A DNA stretch of 64,000 nucleotides, from assembly GCA_021648485.1 (NCBI GenBank), contig JAKISS010000003.1, positions 3,988 to 67,987 on the forward strand, in the 5' to 3' direction. Under the pieces are notes generated by a model. It ran no database searches. It saw only the letters and a list, made by a program, of their open reading frames with translations, and had not been told where the DNA came from. Made by a program: the position numbers and the translations under genes. The first letter of the stretch is position 1, and each line of letters opens with the position of its first letter. The DNA is from Gammaproteobacteria bacterium (lineage in GTDB: Bacteria > Pseudomonadota > Gammaproteobacteria > SZUA-152). This document shows, piece by piece, positions 11,418 through 50,889 of this stretch.

Positions 11418-12179
11418 TTACCAGGAAACAGAATCTTCCAGGAAAGGCGCATCCGGGTCGGTTCTGGGTAGCCGACCATCTTTTTTGAGCGGATTGTCTG
11501 CGCGTGTTAATTCGTCTTCGTGAAGTCTGATTTTGGTTTTGCGACGTGGTAAATAGTGGTTGGCTGGTTGTGTGCCCCATTCCGGCATCAATGGATAGCC
11601 ACCGCCTTCACATATTGCTTGTGAAACTTCGGATTCCGGGTCATGTACGTCACCAAACAGGCGTGCCGAGGTGGGGCAGGCCAGCACGCAGGCGGGTTTA
11701 CGTTCGGCTTCCGGCAGTGATTCGTCGTAGATGCGATCTACGCAAAGGGTGCATTTTTTCATCACTTTTTGTTTTTCATCGATTTCGCGTGCGCCGTAAG
11801 GGCAAGCCCATGAACAGTATTTACAGCCGATACATTTGTCGTAGTCCACCAGTACAATACCGTCTTCCTTGCGTTTGTAACTGGCTCCGGTAGGACACAC
11901 TGGCACGCAAGGCGGCTCTTCACAATGCAGGCAGCTTTTGGGAAAATGTACTGTTTCGGTGTTGGGGAATTCACCGACTTCATAGGTTTGCACGCGATTG
12001 AAGAAGGTGCCGGTGGGGTCTTTGCCGTAGGGGTTGTCATCCATCAACGAACCGGCAGCACCTGAAGTGTTCCACTGCTTGCAACTGGTGACGCAGGCAT
12101 GACAGCCAACGCACACATTTAAGTCGATCACTAACGCGAGCTGAGTCATGATATTCCCCATACCTTGTGGCGGTTGCAT
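11418..12179 (-). CDS. 4Fe-4S ferredoxin-type electron-transfer subunit (DmsB/SoeB-like)
   Basis: Four Cys clusters (CVGCHACVTSC, CLHCEEPPCVPVCP, CIGCKYCSWACP, etc.) typical of DmsB-family subunits. 253 aa. Confidence 0.85.
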   Translation of the reverse strand: MQPPQGMGNIMTQLALVIDLNVCVGCHACVTSCKQWNTSGAAGSLMDDNPYGKDPTGTFFNRVQTYEVGEFPNTETVHFPKSCLHCEEPPCVPVCPTGASYKRKEDGIVLVDYDKCIGCKYCSWACPYGAREIDEKQKVMKKCTLCVDRIYDESLPEAERKPACVLACPTSARLFGDVHDPESEVSQAICEGGGYPLMPEWGTQPANHYLPRRKTKIRLHEDELTRADNPLKKDGRLPRTDPDAPFLEDSVSW

Positions 12180-22363: not shown

Positions 22364-22981
22364 CTAATCCTCCCAGCGAACATAAATCAGCGCTGTGCGG
22401 GCATGGCTTTTTGCCCACACATCCACGCCAGCCAGCTTGTTGATCCAGCGAGCTTCGATTTCTTTAGCGCTTTCATCAATCACATGCTCAAGAAAAACCT
22501 TGAACAATAAGTATTTATTGTCCCAACCCACTTTTTTAGCCGTATTGCTCATGATTTCAAACTGGTTGGTTTTTGCATGTGTACGTTTTACGGTTTCGTA
22601 AACGTCCTTGACATAGGCCTGGGTGATGCGCACGTCTTCTACTGTGCCAACCTGAGTAAGGTGTCCGCCAACAAACACATCAAAGTCGTAAGCCAGAATA
22701 GCATCGAATATTTTCAGGTATTCATGAAAATTATGCGTTAAATCAAAATCCATGAACGGTACGTATCCCGGTGTCAATGAATCAATGACCATGAGGAATT
22801 TCCGTTGCGGCAAATAGAAAAATACATCATTTTCGGTGGAGTGGTAATTGCCGTGCTGGTTTAGTTGAATGGTTTCCGAACCCATTTTTACAACGTGATT
22901 TCCAGAGTAGGTTTCTGTAGGAGTGATGCGTCGAGGATCATTTTTTTCGGCTAAACGTTGCGCCACATGTTTATTGGCCAA
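22364..22981 (-). CDS. Hypothetical protein, possibly a fragment of a metallo-hydrolase-like protein; 5' end abuts the transposase left end
   Basis: 205 aa with weak His-rich motifs (HGNYHSTEND, GGHLT). The start codon is 10 bp from the IS-associated repeat at 22992. Confidence 0.35.
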   Translation of the reverse strand: MANKHVAQRLAEKNDPRRITPTETYSGNHVVKMGSETIQLNQHGNYHSTENDVFFYLPQRKFLMVIDSLTPGYVPFMDFDLTHNFHEYLKIFDAILAYDFDVFVGGHLTQVGTVEDVRITQAYVKDVYETVKRTHAKTNQFEIMSNTAKKVGWDNKYLLFKVFLEHVIDESAKEIEARWINKLAGVDVWAKSHARTALIYVRWED

Positions 22982-22991
22982 TACCTGTTAA

Positions 22992-23066
22992 GGGTCAGTT
23001 CTCGTATTGTAGTCTCTTCTCAAATGGTCTAGACATCAACTTATGGCAAGACCCCTACGTATTGAA
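22992..23066 (+). repeat. Left-end-like 75 bp sequence, copy 1; includes the start and first 8 codons of the Y1 transposase gene
   Basis: GGGTCAGTTCTCGTATTGTAGTCTCTTCTCAAATGGTCTAGACATCAACTTATGGCAAGACCCCTACGTATTGAA, about 90% identical to 25703..25776. Confidence 0.7.
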
Positions 23067-23879
23067 TTTTCCGGTGCCCTTTATCATGTGACCTCACGCG
23101 GTGACCGGCGAGAGGCCATCTTCGAAGATGATGAAGATCGTCAGATATTTCTGTACACCCTGGCGGAGGTTGTTGAACGATTCAATTGGCTTTGTCATGC
23201 TTACTGCCTGATGACAAATCACTACCATCTGCTTGTGGAAACGCCGGATGGAAATCTGTCCAAAGGCATGCGACATCTCAATGGCGTCTACACCCAGGCA
23301 ACAAACCGGCGTCACTCACGAAGCGGTCACCTGTTTCAGGGGCGCTTCAAAGGGATTATTGTCGATAAGGACAGTTATTTGCTGGAGCTGACGCGCTATG
23401 TCGTGCTGAATCCAGTTCGCGCTGGCATAGTACGGCAGCCAGGGAAATGGCCATGGAGCAGCTATTGCGCCATGACAGGTAAAACGCCGACACCGAGCTG
23501 GCTAGCCACAGATGGAATTCTGGCGCAATTTGCCAAACGCCGTACTACCGCCCAAAAGCGGTACAGCGAATTTGTGGCAGAGGGAATCAAGAAAGAATCC
23601 ATCTGGAGTGAATTACAGCAGCAGATTTATCTCGGTGATGAGAAATTTATTAAACGAGTGCAACGGAAAGCGAATGTACAAGGCGATGAGTCAAGTGTGC
23701 CGCGAGCACAGCGCAGAGCGCCTGCTCCTACGCTTGAGAAGATTGCCGCCAAACACCGTGACCGGAATAAAGCTATTTCTGTTGCGTATGCCACCGGGGC
23801 GTACAGCTACCGCGAGATTGCAGAATATTATGGTTTGCATCTTGCCACTGTGGGCAGGATTGTACGAGAAAAAATGTAA
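23043..23879 (+). CDS. Long-form IS200/IS605-like Y1 (HuH) transposase / RAYT-related protein with C-terminal extension
   Basis: The HuH motif (NHYHLLV), the catalytic Tyr region, and the pattern YHVTSRG.....IF.DD.DR..FL of the Y1_Tnp (PF01797) family. The ~120 aa C-terminal extension has a helix-turn-helix-like tail. Confidence 0.75.
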   Translation: MARPLRIEFSGALYHVTSRGDRREAIFEDDEDRQIFLYTLAEVVERFNWLCHAYCLMTNHYHLLVETPDGNLSKGMRHLNGVYTQATNRRHSRSGHLFQGRFKGIIVDKDSYLLELTRYVVLNPVRAGIVRQPGKWPWSSYCAMTGKTPTPSWLATDGILAQFAKRRTTAQKRYSEFVAEGIKKESIWSELQQQIYLGDEKFIKRVQRKANVQGDESSVPRAQRRAPAPTLEKIAAKHRDRNKAISVAYATGAYSYREIAEYYGLHLATVGRIVREKM

Positions 23880-23931
23880 CAATGCGAGAGCTGACCCTTT
23901 GGTGCTTTGGTTTTCGCTTTGGCTCTGTTGA

Positions 23932-24420
23932 TCAGACAGGTTTAGCCGTGGTGAGATCATAGCCCTGCCGCACTGGAGAACCAGCAGTATTAGTTTTATC
24001 GAATTGGGTATAGCTTATATTTAATTTAGAGTATGCCAAAGTGACTTCTTCTCTTGGTGGACCGCCATCACCCCCATCGGCAAATATTTTAAAACCGCTA
24101 ATCAAGCAGTCAAAAAGCTCGTATGTCATAAATTCCTGTAACGTATTACTATGAGTACGTACAAAATGTAGTATGACTTTTTTCCCTTCTGATGTTGAAA
24201 CAGAATCTTTAAAAAAGCCAAGTGTTGCAACATCAAACCCTTTCGTTAACACAATTTTCTCGAATTCCGGATGTGCCGATTCACGGTTTGCCATATGGCC
24301 CGGTATCATGCTTATTTTACGTTTAACATTAAAATTAAGCGATGATATATCAATTTGATTTTCATATCCCGCTGCAGTTACATTCCCGGGTATACCTTCA
24401 AATTCACAATATATGGACAT
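23932..24420 (-). CDS. hcp: Type VI secretion system tube protein Hcp (TssD), orphan copy
   Basis: About 160 aa. It aligns block-wise with the Hcp1 family: IDISSLNFNVKR~IDVLAWSWGMSQ, FEKIVLTKGFDVATLGFFKDSVSTSEGKKVIL~FTKYIDKSTPNLMMACSSGKHYPQAKLTI, QEFMTYELFDCLISGF~VEYLIITLKEVLVSSV, EEVTLAYSKLNISY~ENVTLNFAQVQVDY. No other T6SS genes are present in the window. Confidence 0.75.
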   Translation of the reverse strand: MSIYCEFEGIPGNVTAAGYENQIDISSLNFNVKRKISMIPGHMANRESAHPEFEKIVLTKGFDVATLGFFKDSVSTSEGKKVILHFVRTHSNTLQEFMTYELFDCLISGFKIFADGGDGGPPREEVTLAYSKLNISYTQFDKTNTAGSPVRQGYDLTTAKPV

Positions 24421-24581
24421 TTTTTTCACTCGTGAGAATTAGATTAAATTTGTCTTTTCCAATATTGCATTTTACTATAATTCCAACTTGCATTACTATC
24501 TCGTATGAAGATTAAGTAATATATGATCATTGTCGAATTTACCCGATTACAACCATTGTTCTAGCAGATTGTTAAGGTGTT

Positions 24582-25028
24582 ATGATTACTATTGGATCAA
24601 TTTCAAGGCTTGAAGCGACGAATATCTACCCTTTTTTAGCCAAAAAATATCGTGGCCGAAGAAAGGCTATAAAAGAATTTACCCATCGAGATCCGGATTT
24701 TGTATTTTGGATCTATCCCGATGGACGTCTTTTTGATGCTCGTGATGCACATAAAAAAAACATCCCAAAAGGATATGGTCATATTGTAAATGATGAACCT
24801 AATTATGGTGGTTTCTTACGCGGGCGTGTTGCGACGCTAGGCGATCATCAGTTAATTGTTGTGTATTGCTTAGAGGAGACTCTGTCGTCAAATCAAGAAA
24901 AAATTGAACAGTTCTTAACAGGTGTAAGTGAGATTCCTGTACCGATAATGGATGATGCACTTGTTATAAGTGACAATGCGGATATTTTTGGTACTATCAC
25001 GGATATACATGATAGCATCAATGATTAA
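24582..25028 (+). CDS. Hypothetical protein (AT-rich islet ORF A)
   Basis: 148 aa, low GC, no recognisable domain. It is divergent from hcp across a 150 bp AT-rich promoter region. Confidence 0.4.
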   Translation: MITIGSISRLEATNIYPFLAKKYRGRRKAIKEFTHRDPDFVFWIYPDGRLFDARDAHKKNIPKGYGHIVNDEPNYGGFLRGRVATLGDHQLIVVYCLEETLSSNQEKIEQFLTGVSEIPVPIMDDALVISDNADIFGTITDIHDSIND

Positions 25029-25152
25029 CTACGAAAAAGTATTGGTAGAATAGCTAAAAACCGGATCCGATTTGGTCTTTCTTTTTGGTGGTCAACAATA
25101 TCTCTCTACCTGACCAGCAACCAAAAAAGTTAGAGAGTAGGGAAGGAAAAAT

Positions 25153-25503
25153 ATGGATCCATTTAATATATTATATACGCAGGATTCAATTGACCCAAGT
25201 TTTCAGTCGGATAAAAGTATTCCATTTCAGTGGCGTGGCCGGCCAATCACGGAAGCCATTGACGAAGCAAAAAAATTGGGCCGATTACCTAGAGGACTTC
25301 AATTAAACGCCGTACGTGGCGGAGATGGGTGCTGGATTACTCTAAACAACCGAACTCTGTATGTTGCTCAACAAGCTAAATTAGCAAATGTAAGTCCCGT
25401 CGATGCTGGTACAAAAGGGTCCAATCAAATGACAAAATTACTGCGCAATGCGAGGCTTGCTGGTCCAGTTGAAACGATTACGGTGAGGAAAAAGAAAAAA
25501 TAG
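25153..25503 (+). CDS. Hypothetical protein (AT-rich islet ORF B); weak resemblance to a ParB/Srx-fold domain
   Basis: 116 aa. ..ITEAIDEAKKLGRLPRGLQLNAVRGGDGCWITLNNRTLYVAQQAKLANV loosely follows the ParB N-terminal pattern E.L.ELA.SI...G.LQPI.VR....Y.I.AGERR.RAAKLAGL. This is unverified pattern matching. Confidence 0.4.
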   Translation: MDPFNILYTQDSIDPSFQSDKSIPFQWRGRPITEAIDEAKKLGRLPRGLQLNAVRGGDGCWITLNNRTLYVAQQAKLANVSPVDAGTKGSNQMTKLLRNARLAGPVETITVRKKKK

Positions 25504-25702
25504 ACGCGATAAATTTTATTAAATGTATATGATAGACACGATTGCTATCACTACTACTACTACTAATAATATCCACTTAGTATACCTCGAAACAGAATCT
25601 CAAAATTATAGACTTCCAAGCCTTTAAAAATAGTCCTTTTCAACCATAGCAGAAAAATAGGGTCCTACATCACATAACAAGCTAATAGCTAAGAAGCGAA
25701 AG

Positions 25703-25776
25703 GGGTCAGTTCTCGTATTGTAGTCTTTTCTCAAATGGTCTAAGCTCAACTTATGGCAAGCCTCCTACGTATTGAA
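25703..25776 (+). repeat. Left-end-like 75 bp sequence, copy 2 (truncated duplicate of the Y1 transposase 5' end)
   Basis: About 90% identical to 22992..23066, including ATGGCAAG(C)C(T)CCTACGTATTGAA (MAS/RL/PLRIE). The reading frame collapses after 8 codons. Confidence 0.7.
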
Positions 25777-25822
25777 CCCCTTGGGGTTCTATTCCCCGCC
25801 GCTTGCGGCGTAAAATGTATGG

Positions 25823-26266
25823 ATGAGCAAGTATATCCATAAAAGTCACAATGTTACGGTATTAATCTATCATCTGGTTTTTCCAGCTAAGTATAGGCGA
25901 GCCGTTTTTGATGATAGTGTGGATAGGGTAGTAAAAGAAATTTGTTTGGAAATTGAGAAGCGGTATGAAATAAAATTTCTGGGGATTGGAACTGACAACG
26001 ATCATGTCCATTTTTTAGTGCAATCGGTACCAACGTATAGTGTGAGGAAGCTGGTAACGATGATAAAGAGTCTTACCGTTAGAGAGGTATTTAAGGAATG
26101 CCCGCAGGTCAAAAAGAAGTTGTGGGGAGGTGAGTTTTGGAGCGATGGATATTTTGCCAGTACAGTGGGAAGCATGGCAACGAAGAAATGATTGGGAAGT
26201 ATGTGAAGACTCAAGGTAATGAATACCAAAAATTACATTCGAATCATCCGCTAGCGCTTTTTTAGA
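25823..26266 (+). pseudogene. tnpA: IS200-type Y1 transposase tnpA with a -1 frameshift near codon 116
   Basis: The HuH motif DHVHFLV and the catalytic SDGYFASTVG are present. The intact frame stops at 26191 (…GSMATKK*). Shifting by one nucleotide in the GGG run at about 26167 restores the canonical C-terminus GKHGNEEMIGKYVKTQGNEYQKLHSNHPLALF*. Confidence 0.7.
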
Positions 26267-26461
26267 CGATGCTGCCAAATACCCCGTTTTCGAGAGAAAC
26301 GAGAAAGTCGAGCGTTCAGCGAGAGGGCTTGCCCGGGGGATGTTTATGGTTTTAATTGTAGAGAGTGATGCCCGCGCGGGGACAAAATGATGTTCTGCGG
26401 GCATACTCTGTATGAGCTGATATCAACATTATGGTTTGGTTGGTGTAACAGCCAAAAAAAT

Positions 26462-26773
26462 CTATTTGCTTTTGTTGTGTTCCAGCACGAAGGTGGTGAT
26501 TGCTTCTAACTCTGCACCCTTGATATTTGGAAAGGAGGGCATTCTCATGCTGCCCTGGGTTATTTTTGCTGAGACATAAGCGGCATTTGTATTTTCAGCC
26601 GTCATTTCCCAAAAAGTGGTTAACTCGGTTTCGTTGATAGACGCATGGCAGCCTACACAGGCCTGTGCGAAGATGTCCTTGCCTGATGCGCCTGCTGCTG
26701 GTGTGTAGTCCTTGGAGCCGGAACAGCCACTTAAAACAATAGCCGCCGCGGCAACGCATAATATTTTTTTCAT
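26462..26773 (-). CDS. Small c-type cytochrome lipoprotein
   Basis: A signal peptide with lipobox LSGC, followed by one CxxCH heme site (CVGCHA) and a downstream Met ligand region (SMRMP). Confidence 0.7.
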   Translation of the reverse strand: MKKILCVAAAAIVLSGCSGSKDYTPAAGASGKDIFAQACVGCHASINETELTTFWEMTAENTNAAYVSAKITQGSMRMPSFPNIKGAELEAITTFVLEHNKSK

Positions 26774-42745: not shown

Positions 42746-45034
42746 ATGACAGAAACAACCGAACTAAACTACGAAGGCGTAGAACAACAACCCCTCAGCA
42801 CCTTTACTGAGAACGCCTACCTCAATTACTCCATGTACGTGATCATGGATCGTGCCTTGCCACATATCGGCGATGGTCTGAAGCCCGTGCAGCGACGCAT
42901 CGTCTACGCCATGTCCGAGCTGGGCCTCAAAGCGGGTGCCAAGTACAAAAAATCCGCACGTACTGTGGGTGATGTCTTAGGTAAATTCCATCCTCATGGT
43001 GATTCGGCCTGTTACGAAGCAATGGTCTTGATGGCGCAGCCGTTTTCCTACCGTTATCCACTGGTAGACGGGCAGGGTAACTGGGGTGCGCCGGATGATC
43101 CCAAGTCTTTTGCGGCAATGCGTTATACCGAGTCACGGCTGGCAAAATATTCAGAATTGCTGCTCAGTGAAATTGGCTTGGGTACGGTGGACTGGACACC
43201 GAATTTTGATGCGACACTGGATGAACCTTCAGTGTTGCCGGCGCGGGTACCGAATTTGTTGTTGAACGGTACCACTGGCATTGCCGTGGGTATGGCCACG
43301 GATATCCCGCCACACAATCTACGTGAGGTAGTGAACGCCTGTGTGCATTTGCTGGATACACCGAAGGCAACACTGGCAGATATTTGCGAGTATGTGCAGG
43401 GGCCGGATTACCCCACCGATGCGGAGATCATTACACCACGTAATGAGTTGGTCGCTATGTATGAGAAGGGCGGCGGCTCGGTGCGTATGCGTGCGGTATG
43501 GGAAAAGGAAGACAATGCAGTGGTGGTGACAGCACTGCCGCATCAGGTGTCCGGTAATAAAGTGCTGGAGCAAATTGCTGCGCAAATGAATGCGAAGAAG
43601 TTACCCATGGTGGAAGATTTACGTGATGAATCCGATCATGAAAACCCCACTCGTCTGGTGATTGTGCCGCGCTCCAATCGCATCGATTTGAATGAGTTGA
43701 TGGCGCATCTTTTTGCAACGACAGATCTCGAAAGAACCTATCGTGTAAATATGAACATCATTGGCCTTGATGGCAGGCCGCAGGTGAAAGATCTGCGCAC
43801 TTTGCTCAAGGAATGGCTGATGTTCCGTACCGACACGGTGCGCCGACGGTTGGAATATCGTCTGGAAAAAGTGAAGCGCCGGTTGCATTTACTGGATGGG
43901 TTGCTGATTGCGTTTCTCAATCTTGATGAAGTGATTCACATTGTTCGCACCGAGGATGAACCCAAATCGGTATTGATGAAACGCTTCAAGCTCACTGACG
44001 AGCAGGCGGATTATATTCTTGACACCAAGCTGCGTCAGTTGGCACGTCTGGAAGAAATGAAAATCCGTGCCGAGCAGGAAGAGCTGGCAGCAGAGCGTGA
44101 CAAACTGGAAAAAACGCTGGGTTCAAAAGCGCGCTTGAAAACGCTGATACGTAAGGAGTTGATTGCTGATGCGGAAGAATATGGTGACGAGCGACGCTCT
44201 CCCATTGTCGAGCGTGGTGCAGCTCAAGCGCTGGATGAAACTGCATTGATCAGTGCTGAGCCGGTCACGGTTGTATTGTCGGAGAAGGGCTGGATTAGAG
44301 CAGCCAAAGGCCATGATGTAGATGCTGCGGGCCTTAATTACAAAGCCAGTGATGATTTTAAAGCGGCGGCTTGTGGCCGCAGTAATCAGCAAGTGGTGTT
44401 TTTGGATGCCAGTGGGCGTTCGTATTCCATTGCTGCACATACGTTGCCATCAGCGCGTGGGCAGGGTGAACCGCTCACGGGGCGTGTGACTCCGCCCGAT
44501 GCCGCCAGTTTTGTTGATGTACTTGCGGGTAAAGGCAGTGATTTGTATTTGCTGGCCAGTGATGCGGGGTATGGTTTTGTGACCCGGCTGGAAAATATGT
44601 ATGCCAAAAATAAATCAGGCAAGGCTTTGCTGAAATTGCCCAAGGGTGCGCGAGTGCTGCGGGCCTGTGCTGTCAGTGATGTTGTCAGTGACCGCATTGT
44701 AGCGGTAACCACTGAGGGACGCATGCTGGTTATTTCATTGCAAGAGTTACCGGAAATGGCCAGAGGTAAAGGCAATAAGATTATCGGCATTCCCCCTGCG
44801 CGAGTGGCGAATCGCGAAGAGTATGTGGTTGGCGTTGCCGTTGTTTCTGTGGGTGACAGCTTGACAATTTATTCGGGAAAACGTCATTTGACCCTTAAAC
44901 CCAGGGATATAGAGCACTATGAGGGTGAGCGTGGCCGCCGTGGCTCCAAGCTGCCGCGTGGTTTTCAGCGAGTGGACAATATTTCTGCCAGTGGTTCAGT
45001 AAATGCCGCAACCGGGGTGGTTGAAAAAGAGTAA
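42746..45034 (+). CDS. parC: DNA topoisomerase IV subunit A
   Basis: [25 protein letters not shown]…, the active-site Tyr region (AAMRYTE), and 762 aa. Confidence 0.95.
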
Positions 45035-46887
45035 TGCCGATTGATTTGCTGCAATGGTGGGATCGCTTGCCTTATGTGGGCACAAAGAGCGAAGTGATTG
45101 CGCCGCGTGTTATTCCACTAAAGCTGGATGTGCCGATATTGCGTGTGCGTAACCGGCGCAAGCAGGAAAAATTGCAGCCCCCTCCCGATAGCTGGAAAGA
45201 CCTGAACAAGTATCCAACGGAATTGCTGCGCAAAATCGATGGTTATTTACAGCGTGTTAATACAGAGAAAATGCGTAATAGCAAACGTATGGCCTGGGTT
45301 GAGCATGCCTTGCAGTATGCCTGCCCGGCCATACGAAAAATTTATTCTGAGTACTACAAATCCGAAGCATTGCCGGAATCGCATGACAGACGTGAAGGAT
45401 TGATGGCAGCAATTAATGTGTGCAGCCAATTGGCGGTGGGTTATAAACGTCAACTGAATGAAGATTTTGCCTTGCCCGATGCCCGCTATGCCCGAGTGCG
45501 TCCCCGGGTGCGCCATCATGCTGTGCGTATTTTGGAATTACTGCGCATGGAGCAACGTTTACGTGCCATGCGTTATCAAAAATTATCAGAAAAGAGCTGG
45601 CAGGATTGTCACCAGATATTTTTTGCCCTTTCCCAGTGCGAAGACATTGATGAAAAACGGTTGTCGTTAAATTGCTTGCAGGTGTTGCTGGACAGTTCAG
45701 CCAATGAAAGTACACGCCGGATGCCGATAATGACATCATTAAACCTGGTTTATCTTTCTATCCAGTTTAATGGTTTGTTTAACATTAGCGCCTTGTTATG
45801 CCAAAAACTACATGTGGTGGATGCACAAATTGCCAATGTTATCGGCTCGATTACCATTATTCCCGATCATGGTAAAAAGCTGGGGCGCGGTAAGTTGTTG
45901 ATTTACCATGGGCAGGATTGTCCGCCGTATTTTAAACGTCAGGATGAAATACAGCGGAAAAAACAGCTTGCATGGTTGAAAGCCCGTGGTGAATTTTGCA
46001 CGGGTGAGGCACTTTCATCGGAATATAAACTGAGGGCTGTTATCGTTGATGTCTCGCCGCTGGATGCAATGTTGATGAAAGAACATCAGCGATTGCTGGC
46101 GCGATTTGAGTCACAGGATTTCATTGAGGGCGTGAAAGAAAAAGGGGCAAAAAATAAATATAATAGCGTTGTTGATCAGGATGACCTGGCCAATTTGTTG
46201 ACCATAGATGCCATGTGTGATGGTTTGCAATTGAAACAGCGTAAGGAGGAAAGAGAATATATTCTTGGCCGGAAAATATTGTATGTGTACAACGGGTTTA
46301 TGTCAGTTTACAAATTGCTGGTGGATATGGCGACAGAAAAAAACAACGAAAACTCCAGCCTGGCAAGTGATAATGATTTACGTGATGCATTGGCAGGTCG
46401 TTCGGCATTGATTGCTGCGGATTTGCAGGATAATGAGTTTGGTCAGTGGTTTGTGGTCGATAAAAGTGAGGGCGGGGTTCACATTAAAACACGAGACAGT
46501 GAATTTACTACCGCCTTGTTTATTGGCCAGGTTGTGGCATTTGCTTATTCACGTGAAGCACTTGCCAGACCGGCGCTGGGTTATGTGGTGCGCCTGCGTC
46601 GTAATATCAGTAAAGAAATCGAAGTGACTATTCGTATTTTATCAAAAACCGTTGTTGCTACCACTGTGCAAAATGATTTTTTAACTCAAAATGATATGGC
46701 TTTGCCTGCTATCGTGCTTGAGCGTGATGACATGACCAGGAGACGTTTAATGTTACACCATAGCCATCGATTGTCATCGGGTACCCTGGTAAAGATTGAA
46801 CTGGATCAGCAACAAACGGAAATTATTTCCGAGATGCTGAAAATTCAGCGGGAGTTTGTGGTTTATTCGCTGCTGGAAAAATCGTAA
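45034..46887 (+). CDS. Large conserved hypothetical protein (paralog P1 of 49030..50889)
   Basis: 617 aa. The start ATG overlaps the parC stop (TAATG), implying translational coupling. It shares blocks with the 619 aa protein (…A[VI]GYK…; …HRA[IV]R[IY]L…L…Y…H…W…H…). It may belong to the DUF1631-type family that neighbours fimX in Pseudomonas; that attribution is from recollection and is unverified. Confidence 0.6.
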   Translation: MPIDLLQWWDRLPYVGTKSEVIAPRVIPLKLDVPILRVRNRRKQEKLQPPPDSWKDLNKYPTELLRKIDGYLQRVNTEKMRNSKRMAWVEHALQYACPAIRKIYSEYYKSEALPESHDRREGLMAAINVCSQLAVGYKRQLNEDFALPDARYARVRPRVRHHAVRILELLRMEQRLRAMRYQKLSEKSWQDCHQIFFALSQCEDIDEKRLSLNCLQVLLDSSANESTRRMPIMTSLNLVYLSIQFNGLFNISALLCQKLHVVDAQIANVIGSITIIPDHGKKLGRGKLLIYHGQDCPPYFKRQDEIQRKKQLAWLKARGEFCTGEALSSEYKLRAVIVDVSPLDAMLMKEHQRLLARFESQDFIEGVKEKGAKNKYNSVVDQDDLANLLTIDAMCDGLQLKQRKEEREYILGRKILYVYNGFMSVYKLLVDMATEKNNENSSLASDNDLRDALAGRSALIAADLQDNEFGQWFVVDKSEGGVHIKTRDSEFTTALFIGQVVAFAYSREALARPALGYVVRLRRNISKEIEVTIRILSKTVVATTVQNDFLTQNDMALPAIVLERDDMTRRRLMLHHSHRLSSGTLVKIELDQQQTEIISEMLKIQREFVVYSLLEKS

Positions 46888-49029: not shown

Positions 49030-50889
49030 TTAAATCAGTGTCCATACGGCATCGAATTCGTCATCTGTCTCAGCATCGGCCGATGGTTTTGTTTTTTTCT
49101 GCACATTTTCAAGTACGGTAAATTCAAACTGAGAGAATACACCAGTGGATTCCAGTTGTTTAGTGAGTTTGATGCGTGTGCGACGTCCGTGGACGTTGGC
49201 AATCAGTTGGTCATCGGTTTGGTGCCAAGCATGTGTGATCAGTGTGGCAGGTTGGTCAATGCTGGACAATCGGGGTAATACCAAACTGCGCTGATATTTT
49301 TCCGCAGTGTCATCTTTGGTAATGGCAGAAAGCGCAATAGCATCAGCGCAGGGTGCCAGTTTCTGGATGCCAAGCTCAAGCCCGTTTTTCCAGTTTTTTA
49401 TGCGGCGGATAATGCCAATGCTGAGTTGTGTGCCGCTTGCGGCAATATTATCGCGGATACCCACCAGTTCGCCGACCTGGACTTTTTGTGAATCTTTTCC
49501 ATAAACCAGATAACCTAGCAGGCAGTAACCACCGGCACTTTCGTTGACGCCTTTGCAGGGCAACGGAGTGTGTGCGTATAAAGCGCTTTTGTCCTGAGTT
49601 TCGTCACCACGGGTTTCTGAAGTATGCTCGGGGTTGTTCGCCCGGTAGGTGAAATCCGGATCCCAGATATCCGGTGTATGGTCATCCAGATTGCTGATAC
49701 CAAACACGGGGCTGCTGGTGTAGTGGGCAGGTTCATCCAGCACAAAGTCCTCATCATCGTCCGTTGTTGAAACAAGGTTGCCCGTCTGTAGGGCATCTGT
49801 CGCTGTGGGGCAACTTGCTGTTGGGTCTTTCAACAGAGGGCGAATGACTTCATCGATGTAATGATGGGTTGCGCTCAGACCGAGAGTGATGGCAATTTCG
49901 TTGCTTTTTGAGGTGCGGGGGAAAGTACGGTGCGATTTTCCGCTCCAGGTGACGATCAGGCGTTTTTGTACATCGGGTGGAATTTTTGGGGCAGCATCAC
50001 CACCGGAGAGCATGGAGTTACTCATGGCCTGCACCAGTTCGCTGGTATCCACGGTACGACAGAATGCGGGGTTGACGGTGCCATCGTCACGGAAATAACC
50101 GGGAGCGGCATCGCTGTTCATATTGATGTTAAAGGCGTAGCTGTCATCCAGGATTTCGCCGTAAGGGTGGATGTGGGCATTGGCTCCCCAGGTTTCCAGT
50201 GTCCGATACACAGCCTCAGTGACATGTTGGCGCAAGCGGTAGGGGCCGACCAGGGCCAGCAGGAGGATTTGTTTGTAAATGTCAGCGATATTACTGTCCA
50301 ACACGGTCTCGGGGGCAACATGATCCTTGATCAACGTGACGTGCAACTGGCGGTTCTCTGCATACAAATAAAGACGATGCACTTGCAGCCAGACATTTTC
50401 CGGGTGCTGGATATAAATCTGATACGAGCACAGCAGCACATTACTGAGATAACGAATGGCACGATGCAGGCAAATGCCCAGGGTTTTGTTGTTCAGGCGT
50501 GAAAAAGTCTTGCTAAGTTTGCTTTGAATAATGGCCTTATAGCCAATGGCCATTTCCGAGTTCAGTTGAATAGCCAGCTCGGCAATTTTTTGATTTTTGG
50601 GAGAAAGAGGCAGATTTTGATTAATGTAGTGTGTTTTTAACACCTCTGTAATCTGGTAAACCGGTTCGCGCAGAAGCTCCATGGATTTATAACGGTCATG
50701 TGCAGACATGCTCAGGCGATTCATCTCACACAGTGTTGTATAAATAAGGCGTGCGCTTTCGCCGATGTTGGCCATCGGTAGCGAAGTGACCCAGGCCTCA
50801 ACCTGTTTTGGACGAGGGTCGAACGAACCCGAAGTGGGTTTGTTTTGTTCCGGGATGTTCAGTAATCCTTCAGACATGCTGTTCGCCAC
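49030..50889 (-). CDS. Large conserved hypothetical protein (paralog P2 of 45034..46887)
   Basis: 619 aa, co-oriented directly upstream of the fimX-like gene. The sequence blocks shared with P1 are listed under that feature. Confidence 0.6.
   Translation of the reverse strand: MANSMSEGLLNIPEQNKPTSGSFDPRPKQVEAWVTSLPMANIGESARLIYTTLCEMNRLSMSAHDRYKSMELLREPVYQITEVLKTHYINQNLPLSPKNQKIAELAIQLNSEMAIGYKAIIQSKLSKTFSRLNNKTLGICLHRAIRYLSNVLLCSYQIYIQHPENVWLQVHRLYLYAENRQLHVTLIKDHVAPETVLDSNIADIYKQILLLALVGPYRLRQHVTEAVYRTLETWGANAHIHPYGEILDDSYAFNINMNSDAAPGYFRDDGTVNPAFCRTVDTSELVQAMSNSMLSGGDAAPKIPPDVQKRLIVTWSGKSHRTFPRTSKSNEIAITLGLSATHHYIDEVIRPLLKDPTASCPTATDALQTGNLVSTTDDDEDFVLDEPAHYTSSPVFGISNLDDHTPDIWDPDFTYRANNPEHTSETRGDETQDKSALYAHTPLPCKGVNESAGGYCLLGYLVYGKDSQKVQVGELVGIRDNIAASGTQLSIGIIRRIKNWKNGLELGIQKLAPCADAIALSAITKDDTAEKYQRSLVLPRLSSIDQPATLITHAWHQTDDQLIANVHGRRTRIKLTKQLESTGVFSQFEFTVLENVQKKTKPSADAETDDEFDAVWTLI

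Follow-up and report, generated by a model that had tools for sequence, protein, structure and literature searches.

Probable patchwork of a TIRtron, an orphan Hcp-effector islet and an IS200 in a gammaproteobacterial metagenome-assembled genome

Genes for Hcp, the tube protein of type VI secretion systems (T6SS), are common as orphans distant from T6SS clusters. Among small tyrosine transposases with HUH chemistry, the type closest to the one described here is the TIRtron, a unit encoding a TIR-associated tyrosine transposase (TIRYT) and bearing terminal inverted repeats (TIRs) with the consensus GGGGWSAS (Di Nocera et al. 2013, PMC3733652); TIRYT has since been identified with TnpA_Y1 subclass 2.1 (Quentin et al. 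2018, PMC6006769). These accounts describe solo, dimeric and grouped TIR copies for TIRtrons, and in the sections read no transposition activity is reported for the class (PMC3733652, PMC6006769). Here we analyse a 64-kb stretch of a gammaproteobacterial metagenome-assembled genome (MAG; contig JAKISS010000003.1), hereafter the window, in whose coordinates all positions are given. Between positions 22990 and 26345 of the window, a TIRYT gene, a minus-strand hcp gene, two open reading frames (ORFs) of 148 and 116 amino acids and an IS200-like element lie side by side, and a preliminary description had read the first 2.7 kb as a single-strand transposon with hcp as its cargo. We find instead that this region is probably a patchwork of independent selfish and foreign pieces, among them an orphan Hcp-effector islet lodged between selfish elements.

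The leftmost piece is a complete 910-bp TIRtron on the forward strand (22990–23899), consisting of a TIRYT gene of 278 amino acids (23043–23879, +) and two terminal inverted-repeat arms of 21 nucleotides (22990–23010 and 23879–23899) that are 90% complementary. The right end of this unit lies 33 bp from the hcp stop codon. The Y1 gene is thus closed off by its own inverted repeats before hcp begins and therefore constitutes a self-contained unit of 910 bp. Three copies of the 21-nucleotide core are present in the window, where 100 shuffles give an expectation of 0.00, and the third copy, with one mismatch in the core, forms the start of a second direct repeat discussed below. The TIR core here reads GGGTCAG/GGGGTCAG, of which GGGGTCAG fits the published TIRYT consensus GGGGWSAS. 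A further TIR-like pattern match at 11455 lies inside a 4Fe-4S gene and was taken as a chance match.

The encoded protein is a RAYT-like Y1/HUH enzyme that scores 89.8 bits against the NCBIfam model REP_Tyr_transpos (cutoff 80) and 46 bits against Pfam Y1_Tnp, has no match to the transpos_IS200 model at E <= 0.01, and finds its best Protein Data Bank (PDB) sequence match in TnpA_REP (4ER8). The HUH residues (H60 and H62) and Y119 are invariant among 24 TIRYT homologues, and a C-terminal extension of about 130 amino acids is conserved in TIRYT; in this part, where TnpA_Y1 subclass 2.1 would have a helix-turn-helix resembling Bac_DnaA_C, HTH_23 or HTH_28, the window protein weakly matches the CD3324 family (E 0.0015). 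One homologue with 73% identity (P0116) carries precomputed matches to PF13936 and PF13518, and PADLOC returned no match for TIRYT. Judged by its sequence, the 278-amino-acid unit is a TIRtron (TIRYT, TnpA_Y1 subclass 2.1) and thus belongs to a described type.

Comparison across the family shows that the boundaries of this unit recur. At least 8000 TIRYT candidates were scored, all at E <= 1e-5, and the best 120 are 69–100% identical to the window protein; the comparison of loci draws mainly on 80 loci of species-representative genomes at 54–90% protein identity. A relative in L001/L002 (84% protein identity) carries equivalent inverted repeats, and its homology to the window ends just outside them. 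The left core is present in 71 of the 77 full-length copies that have enough flanking sequence, with its start mostly 43–51 nucleotides upstream of the ATG; in 35 of those 77 the arms are identical at 17 or more of 22 positions, and family members with as little as 55% protein identity still have the inverted repeats. Over the inner 14 nucleotides, the two arms within a copy match at 12.2 of 14 positions compared with 8.0 of 14 between copies, and the arms therefore co-evolve.

Several additional features of TIRYT elements were recorded alongside these boundaries. The right inverted repeat of the window copy overlaps the 3′ end of the gene (23876–23899); in homologues of 283 amino acids, the right repeat apparently encodes the last residues (LQxEN, then the stop), and in the window a TAA just before it yields the 278-amino-acid protein. 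Between the right TIR and the hcp module, a stretch of 29 nucleotides (23897–23925) contains three copies of CTTTGG, the hexamer that forms the outer flank of the TIR. Tandem direct arrays of the TIR core are frequent at TIRYT elements, reaching up to nine copies at a spacing of about 20–45 nucleotides, and sit either directly upstream of the gene or, oppositely oriented, downstream of it, as though the processing of ends had stuttered. Such arrays occur in at least ten loci, for example at L091:658-907, L012:827-891, L058:1314-1388 and L082:911-959, with others at L068:919-995 and in L080, L027 and L086.

Set beside described systems, the window unit shares with TIRtrons the RAYT-like Y1/HUH core, the long conserved C-terminal extension, TIRs bearing GGGGWSAS, the lack of REP hairpins and the presence of extra TIR copies near the gene, the last as described in the published accounts; it differs in nothing essential, the overlap of its right TIR with the 3′ end of the gene being the one variation noted. 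With IS200/IS605 elements (IS200, IS608) it has in common the Y1_Tnp superfamily, no visible target-site duplication and a genuine IS200 as its neighbour (25777–26345). Unlike those elements, it has long inverted repeats in place of subterminal hairpins, and its protein is twice as long as an IS200 TnpA (about 130–150 amino acids) and passes the RAYT rather than the IS200 model.

The direct repeats that had prompted the transposon interpretation are explained by a second, broken copy of the same element. The two repeats (22992–23066 and 25703–25776) bracket the Y1 gene, the minus-strand hcp gene and the two small ORFs, as the preliminary description had stated, and share 92% identity across an alignment of 75 columns that contains one gap, with differences at six positions; there is no further copy of the 75-nucleotide repeat in the window. 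Because the intact copy's own right inverted repeat precedes hcp, the repeats represent two head-to-tail TIRtron copies and not the two ends of one unit. The second copy (25701–25776, +; 92% identical to 22992–23066) comprises a left inverted repeat, the 5′ leader and eight codons (MASLLRIE), and the left end of the IS200 begins directly after codon 8. No remainder of the second TIRYT gene was found beyond the IS200, which identifies this copy as a remnant. The preliminary description was thus right that the 278-amino-acid protein is a Y1/HUH enzyme and that the second repeat is a truncated duplicate of the 5′ end of its gene, and it was mistaken in classing the repeats as IS200/IS605-type left ends, since they are the left TIR, 5′ leader and first codons of a TIRtron whose protein passes the RAYT model. 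It had also proposed that subterminal hairpins should be sought in the repeats. Single-strand DNA folds of the two copies reach −1.4 and −0.7 kcal/mol (z-scores +0.46 and +0.97), no better than shuffled sequence, so the repeats are without hairpin potential, an outcome that the description itself had named as speaking against it.

Truncated left ends of this kind are not peculiar to the window. Extra N-terminal TIRYT fragments of 20–150 amino acids lie within a few kb of a full copy in about 12 of the 80 loci (L024, L034, L042, L047, L048, L063, L074, L076, L079, L081, L085 and L021), and in homologue P0050 the N-terminus is duplicated. Fragments of right ends are rarer than those of left ends, and the excess of N-terminal fragments may come in part from higher N-terminal conservation. 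The idea of recurrent cargo between fragments and full copies was rejected, the intervening DNA lying within 0.07 of the locus in GC content and holding unremarkable, unannotated ORFs.

The IS200-like element that interrupts the second copy (25777–26345, +; right border approximate) is ordinary. Its tnpA (25823–26191) scores 122 bits against NCBIfam transpos_IS200 (cutoff 55), and positions 25769–26286 are 73% identical at the nucleotide level to a multi-copy IS200 of Ca. Megaera plasmids. Relative to the Megaera IS200, one nucleotide is deleted between 26169 and 26170, and the remaining protein runs on to 26265, which bears out, for this assembly, the frameshift reported earlier. Two hairpins are present at the left end (z −2.41), and the right-end hairpin region is disturbed compared with the Megaera copy.

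Between the two TIRtron copies lies an AT-rich module of three genes, hcp, ORF148 and ORF116, that spans 1.59 kb with sharp borders (23926–25513). Four contigs (L141, L142, L010 and L011; one from a MAG and three from metagenomes) match it at about 96% nucleotide identity, and the homology covers exactly 23926–25513/4, with flanks unrelated to the window; L011 ends inside the span. The flanks of these close copies begin a few bp beyond the stop codons of the outer module genes and contain no TIRtron; the L141 module is flanked by genes for an Amidase_3 and a Peptidase_S8 protein. More divergent trios lie between a lytS/lytTR pair and argH in metagenome contigs L003–L008, L093 and L094, and beside ThsB-TIR/SLATT genes (Thoeris-like) in L009, with proteins that are 63–69% (Hcp), 77–82% (ORF148) and 64–73% (ORF116) identical to those of the window. 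In the examined flanks of these other module contexts there is no TIRYT gene or IS200, and none of Hcp, ORF148 and ORF116 is encoded within 10 kb of TIRYT at any of the 80 TIRYT loci. As the module recurs without the repeats and TIRYT loci occur without the module, the recurring unit is therefore the trio and not the repeat-bracketed 2.7 kb. The whole unit, which the preliminary description had proposed to look for with different flanks, was not seen to recur in that way. L148 is the only other contig with the TIRtron–hcp junction, which it repeats at 98% identity over window positions 22996–24000; by sequence, this is the same arrangement in a closely related population and adds no new insertion site. 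Module and TIRtrons otherwise recur separately.

The surroundings of the module show further small features. In L009, the ORF116 homologue (L009:404-745) is broken by a stop codon. L141 and L142 carry direct copies of AAAGGGGTCATTGCTTGAT(+) on both sides of the module, one of them 117 bp ahead of it and the other, which belongs to a palindromic pair, 6 bp beyond it. The module is flanked by a REPIN-like palindrome CAAAGGGGTCATTGCTTGAT...ATCAAGCAATGACCCCTTTG and by its single arms at L141:831-849 and 2540-2608 and in L142 and L010. In L010 and L011 the opposite arm of the palindrome stands at the equivalent position, suggesting rearrangement within the palindrome, and nothing resembling the L141-type repeat was found in viral contigs. 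In the window, the module is followed by an AT-rich spacer (25514–25700) that lies outside the L141/L010 homology and has no counterpart in the other module contexts; it contains an (ACT)5 run at 25549–25563.

The gene content of the module points to a T6SS-linked islet. The hcp gene (23932–24420, −) encodes a 162-amino-acid protein of the TssD family that matches Pfam T6SS_HCP over its full length at 92.8 bits (cutoff 23.5), giving the Hcp assignment the profile support on which the preliminary description had made it depend; against TIGR03344 it scores 34.8 bits, below the cutoff of 58.9. The closest Hcp relative recovered from outside the module, P0124 at 50% identity, is encoded at the head of a canonical islet of the hcp-vgrG-DUF2169-PAAR-like type, which has a JetA/JetB/JetC-like (Wadjet-type) gene set some 2.4 kb upstream (L144:1851-7640). 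The absence of T6SS genes around the window hcp was surveyed by scanning 30 of the larger window ORFs, including all listed ORFs of at least 200 amino acids at about 3–46 kb, which proved to be housekeeping and chromosomal genes (among them topA, the pho regulon, a molybdopterin oxidoreductase, parE/parC and dinB); no T6SS, VgrG or PAAR family occurs among them, and no T6SS gene lies within 20 kb, so that hcp stands as the orphan it had been taken for. The AT-rich, foreign-looking character ascribed to the segment was likewise borne out, with 33–41% GC in sliding windows over about 24000–25800 and mostly 45–55% in the surroundings.

ORF116 (25153–25503, +) is the candidate Hcp-carried effector, a protein of 13 kDa. 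It has 83 relatives among 1.84 billion representative proteins, of which 33 have a length of at least 300 amino acids; in 29 of these the match ends no more than 25 residues from the C-terminus. The Pretoxin-HINT domain (PT-HINT) ends just ahead of the match in nine of ten longer relatives tested, and RHS repeats are present in four of the ten. A C-terminal position behind PT-HINT and RHS is the signature of a polymorphic-toxin C-terminal domain, and we accordingly classify ORF116, as far as sequence can tell, as a stand-alone cassette of this kind. It resembles the stand-alone C-terminal cassettes described for polymorphic toxins (Zhang et al. 2012, PMC3482391), with relatives that lie C-terminally after PT-HINT or RHS elsewhere, and differs from them in having no match to a Pfam toxin profile and no cognate immunity gene after it. 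ORF116 gave no match in Pfam (E <= 10), NCBIfam or PADLOC, nothing significant in profile searches against PDB sequences, and a single-sequence AlphaFold model (pLDDT 39.7) that was unusable. Its family has a nearly invariant NNRT motif, which fits the published Tox-ParBL1 descriptor [NT][RT][RT] (PMC3482391); by this motif, ORF116 is possibly ParB-like (Tox-ParBL1).

ORF148 (24582–25028, +) encodes a conserved protein and is a candidate, unproven, for an immunity or accessory role. Its 837 homologues are about 60–68% identical and carry source names from very different lineages, including Verrucomicrobiota, Armatimonadota, Bacteroidota and Gammaproteobacteria; the family has invariant His, Asp, Cys and Arg positions. 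No match was found in Pfam (E <= 10), NCBIfam or PADLOC, and an AlphaFold2 model with high confidence (pLDDT 91.4) has no convincing solved structural relative. ORF148 is the only neighbour that could serve as an immunity gene for ORF116, no cognate immunity gene lying 3′ of ORF116. As a cognate immunity protein it was tried and rejected in one comparison, being unrelated to the ORF that follows the 56%-identical toxin domain of P0252. It also occurs mostly alone among ordinary genes, without a toxin, and the 25 most frequent families listed for 88 ORFs around stand-alone homologues include no toxin, immunity or T6SS family. Because ORF148 is unrelated to that ORF and also occurs alone, the effector–immunity pairing is unproven, and an immunity role for it is a guess.

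Taken as a whole, the hcp trio is a further case of the known orphan Hcp-effector islets. As in other auxiliary Hcp-effector modules, hcp lies outside a core cluster in an AT-rich, foreign-looking islet and adjoins a toxin-domain protein, here of 13 kDa and thus of a size that would fit the ring lumen, together with a further small ORF. It departs from them in that hcp is divergent from the other two genes, in that ORF148 precedes the toxin, is unusually conserved (about 60–68%) and is found mostly alone, and in that no T6SS is known for the host.

We propose that four pieces came together in a decayed insertion site between a 5′-truncated metallo-β-lactamase-fold (MBL-fold) gene and a cytochrome c gene. 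A complete TIRtron within its own 21-nucleotide TIRs would be the first; the second would be a horizontally acquired 1.59-kb orphan T6SS islet with hcp divergent from ORF148 and ORF116. The third would be the left end of another TIRtron in head-to-tail orientation, its body lost through insertion of an IS200 at codon 8 and a deletion, and the fourth the inserted IS200 itself, frameshifted since. These would be independent insertions into one site, and the order of events is our reconstruction, no empty site or ancestral arrangement having been found. In function, going by general knowledge of T6SSs and by other orphan islets that pair hcp with an effector, Hcp would form its hexameric ring and export ORF116, a toxin of 13 kDa, by way of a T6SS located elsewhere in the genome, with ORF148 the sole candidate for self-protection or an accessory role.

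Besides the missing empty site, several observations weigh against this account. All three TIR copies of the 64-kb window surround the module, and in L141 another GGGGTCA-type repeat likewise stands on both sides of it in direct orientation, a coincidence suggestive of a link. The T6SS survey covered the 64-kb window only, and an exporting T6SS is assumed to exist elsewhere in the MAG. On the side of the module itself, ORF148 is unrelated to the ORF after a related toxin and is also found alone beside ordinary genes. The source, finally, is a MAG, the one assembly in which the ORF116-side junctions and the frameshift of a single base are seen.

These points bear on four alternatives to the patchwork. 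The transposon proposed at the outset, a single-strand peel-and-paste element of 2.7 kb in which the Y1 enzyme uses both direct left ends and carries the trio as cargo, can draw on direct repeats far above chance, intact catalytic HUH and Tyr residues, the AT-rich character of the segment and the recurrence of the TIRtron–hcp junction at 98% identity in another data set (L148). We nevertheless hold it very improbable: the intact copy's own right end precedes hcp, the repeats lack hairpins and the second copy, cut by the IS200, is a remnant; the trio has borders of its own and appears at about 96% identity in flanks free of TIRtrons, yet at none of the 80 TIRYT loci, where the DNA between fragment and full copy is ordinary host DNA; and L148 offers the same junction at no new site. 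Composite and one-ended vehicles (IS composite transposons, IS91/ISCR read-through) share with the window directly repeated ends that flank foreign genes, and they differ from it in that here the unit in its entirety is not seen again at different sites, one of the brackets is dead, and the cargo moves without brackets. A looser version, in which TIR-type repeats mobilise or recruit the module in trans, as a target or a mobilisable cassette, has a slim chance. It would account for the (+) TIRs at 22990 and 25701 around the window module (TIR-A) and the AAAGGGGTCATTGCTTGAT(+) copies, a REPIN-like TIR-B, around the module of L141 and L142, both with the GGGGTCA core of the TIRYT consensus. But the two contexts are homologous only up to the edges of the module, short of the brackets, the spacers measure 27 versus 117 bp on one side and 190 versus 6 bp on the other, and the TIR families differ; the module was therefore not moved as one unit from TIR to TIR. 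No such motif, moreover, adjoins the module in the lytS/argH and L009 contexts, and with three copies of TIR-B in 4 kb of L141 its proximity may reflect REP-like abundance. Left-end duplications and tandem TIR arrays near TIRYT genes do imply that read-through or one-ended events could occasionally carry neighbouring genes; still, that TIRYT-type repeats take a real mechanistic part in moving or capturing the hcp-toxin module strikes us as doubtful in the same degree. To our knowledge, mobilisation of cargo has not been reported for enzymes of this class, and their activity is still undefined.

The remaining two alternatives concern the function of the trio and the integrity of the assembly. 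The trio could act without a T6SS, as a toxin-based addiction or defence module with an Hcp-like ring in a host that possibly lacks a T6SS, and the absence of T6SS genes from the 64 kb, the conservation of a compact unit in housekeeping contexts, the ThsB-TIR and SLATT genes adjoining the L009 copy and the subthreshold TIGR03344 score of Hcp all lean in that direction. PADLOC, however, matches none of the three proteins, orphan copies of hcp remote from T6SS clusters are known to be common, the closest Hcp relative outside the module sits in a vgrG-PAAR islet, and the ORF116 domain is otherwise borne by secreted PT-HINT/RHS toxins, and we regard such a role as unlikely. A partial assembly artefact, whether a chimeric join at the repeats or a homopolymer error behind the IS200 frameshift, might be suspected in a metagenome-assembled source where the frameshift is one missing base and where many of the best homologues lie on contigs of about 0.9–1.1 kb, close to the 910 bp of the unit, as if the element broke assemblies. 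The TIRtron–hcp junction is reproduced in the independent assembly L148, however, the internal order of the module recurs in many contigs, and the six differences between the repeat copies mean that they are not a collapsed repeat, so we consider an artefact the most remote of these accounts. The patchwork of independently acquired pieces thus remains the reading that we find probable.

The chromosomal neighbours frame this island on both sides. To the left is the 3′ part of an MBL-fold gene (22364–22981, −), 5′-truncated where the left inverted repeat starts: its ORF covers positions 192–355 of 374 in a VarG MBL model and 123–271 of 283 in a SoxH-related model, the reading frame ends at the border of the TIRtron inverted repeat, and the N-terminal half is absent. 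No HxHxDH motif was seen in the 205 amino acids of the truncated ORF, and the lost N-terminal part was not found adjoining the island. To the right is a cytochrome c lipoprotein gene (26462–26773, −; Pfam Cytochrome_CBB3), with a hairpin directly downstream of it (26359–26412). No Rfam family was found at 20–30 kb of the window and no tRNA gene in the window as a whole, and a promoter scan, which performed at chance level, returned no site in the 75-nucleotide repeat, where the preliminary description had placed a promoter region, and no terminator-like site. Elsewhere in the window, two ORFs of about 617–619 amino acids (45034–46887, +, and 49030–50889, −) remained without a Pfam match at E <= 1e-5.

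The spread of Hcp-effector modules by a new single-strand transposon would have been notable, and the evidence does not support it. What the locus offers is a TIRtron in clear form, accompanied by a second, truncated copy, and the definition of a sharply bounded, horizontally moving trio of hcp, ORF148 and ORF116. Within that trio, ORF116 represents a toxin domain family found behind PT-HINT and RHS for which Pfam has no model, and ORF148 a very conserved family of 148-amino-acid proteins whose fold is predicted with confidence and has no convincing counterpart among solved structures. The left-end duplications and the tandem arrays of TIRs that recur at TIRYT loci may help specialists to understand how the TIRYT HUH enzymes act.

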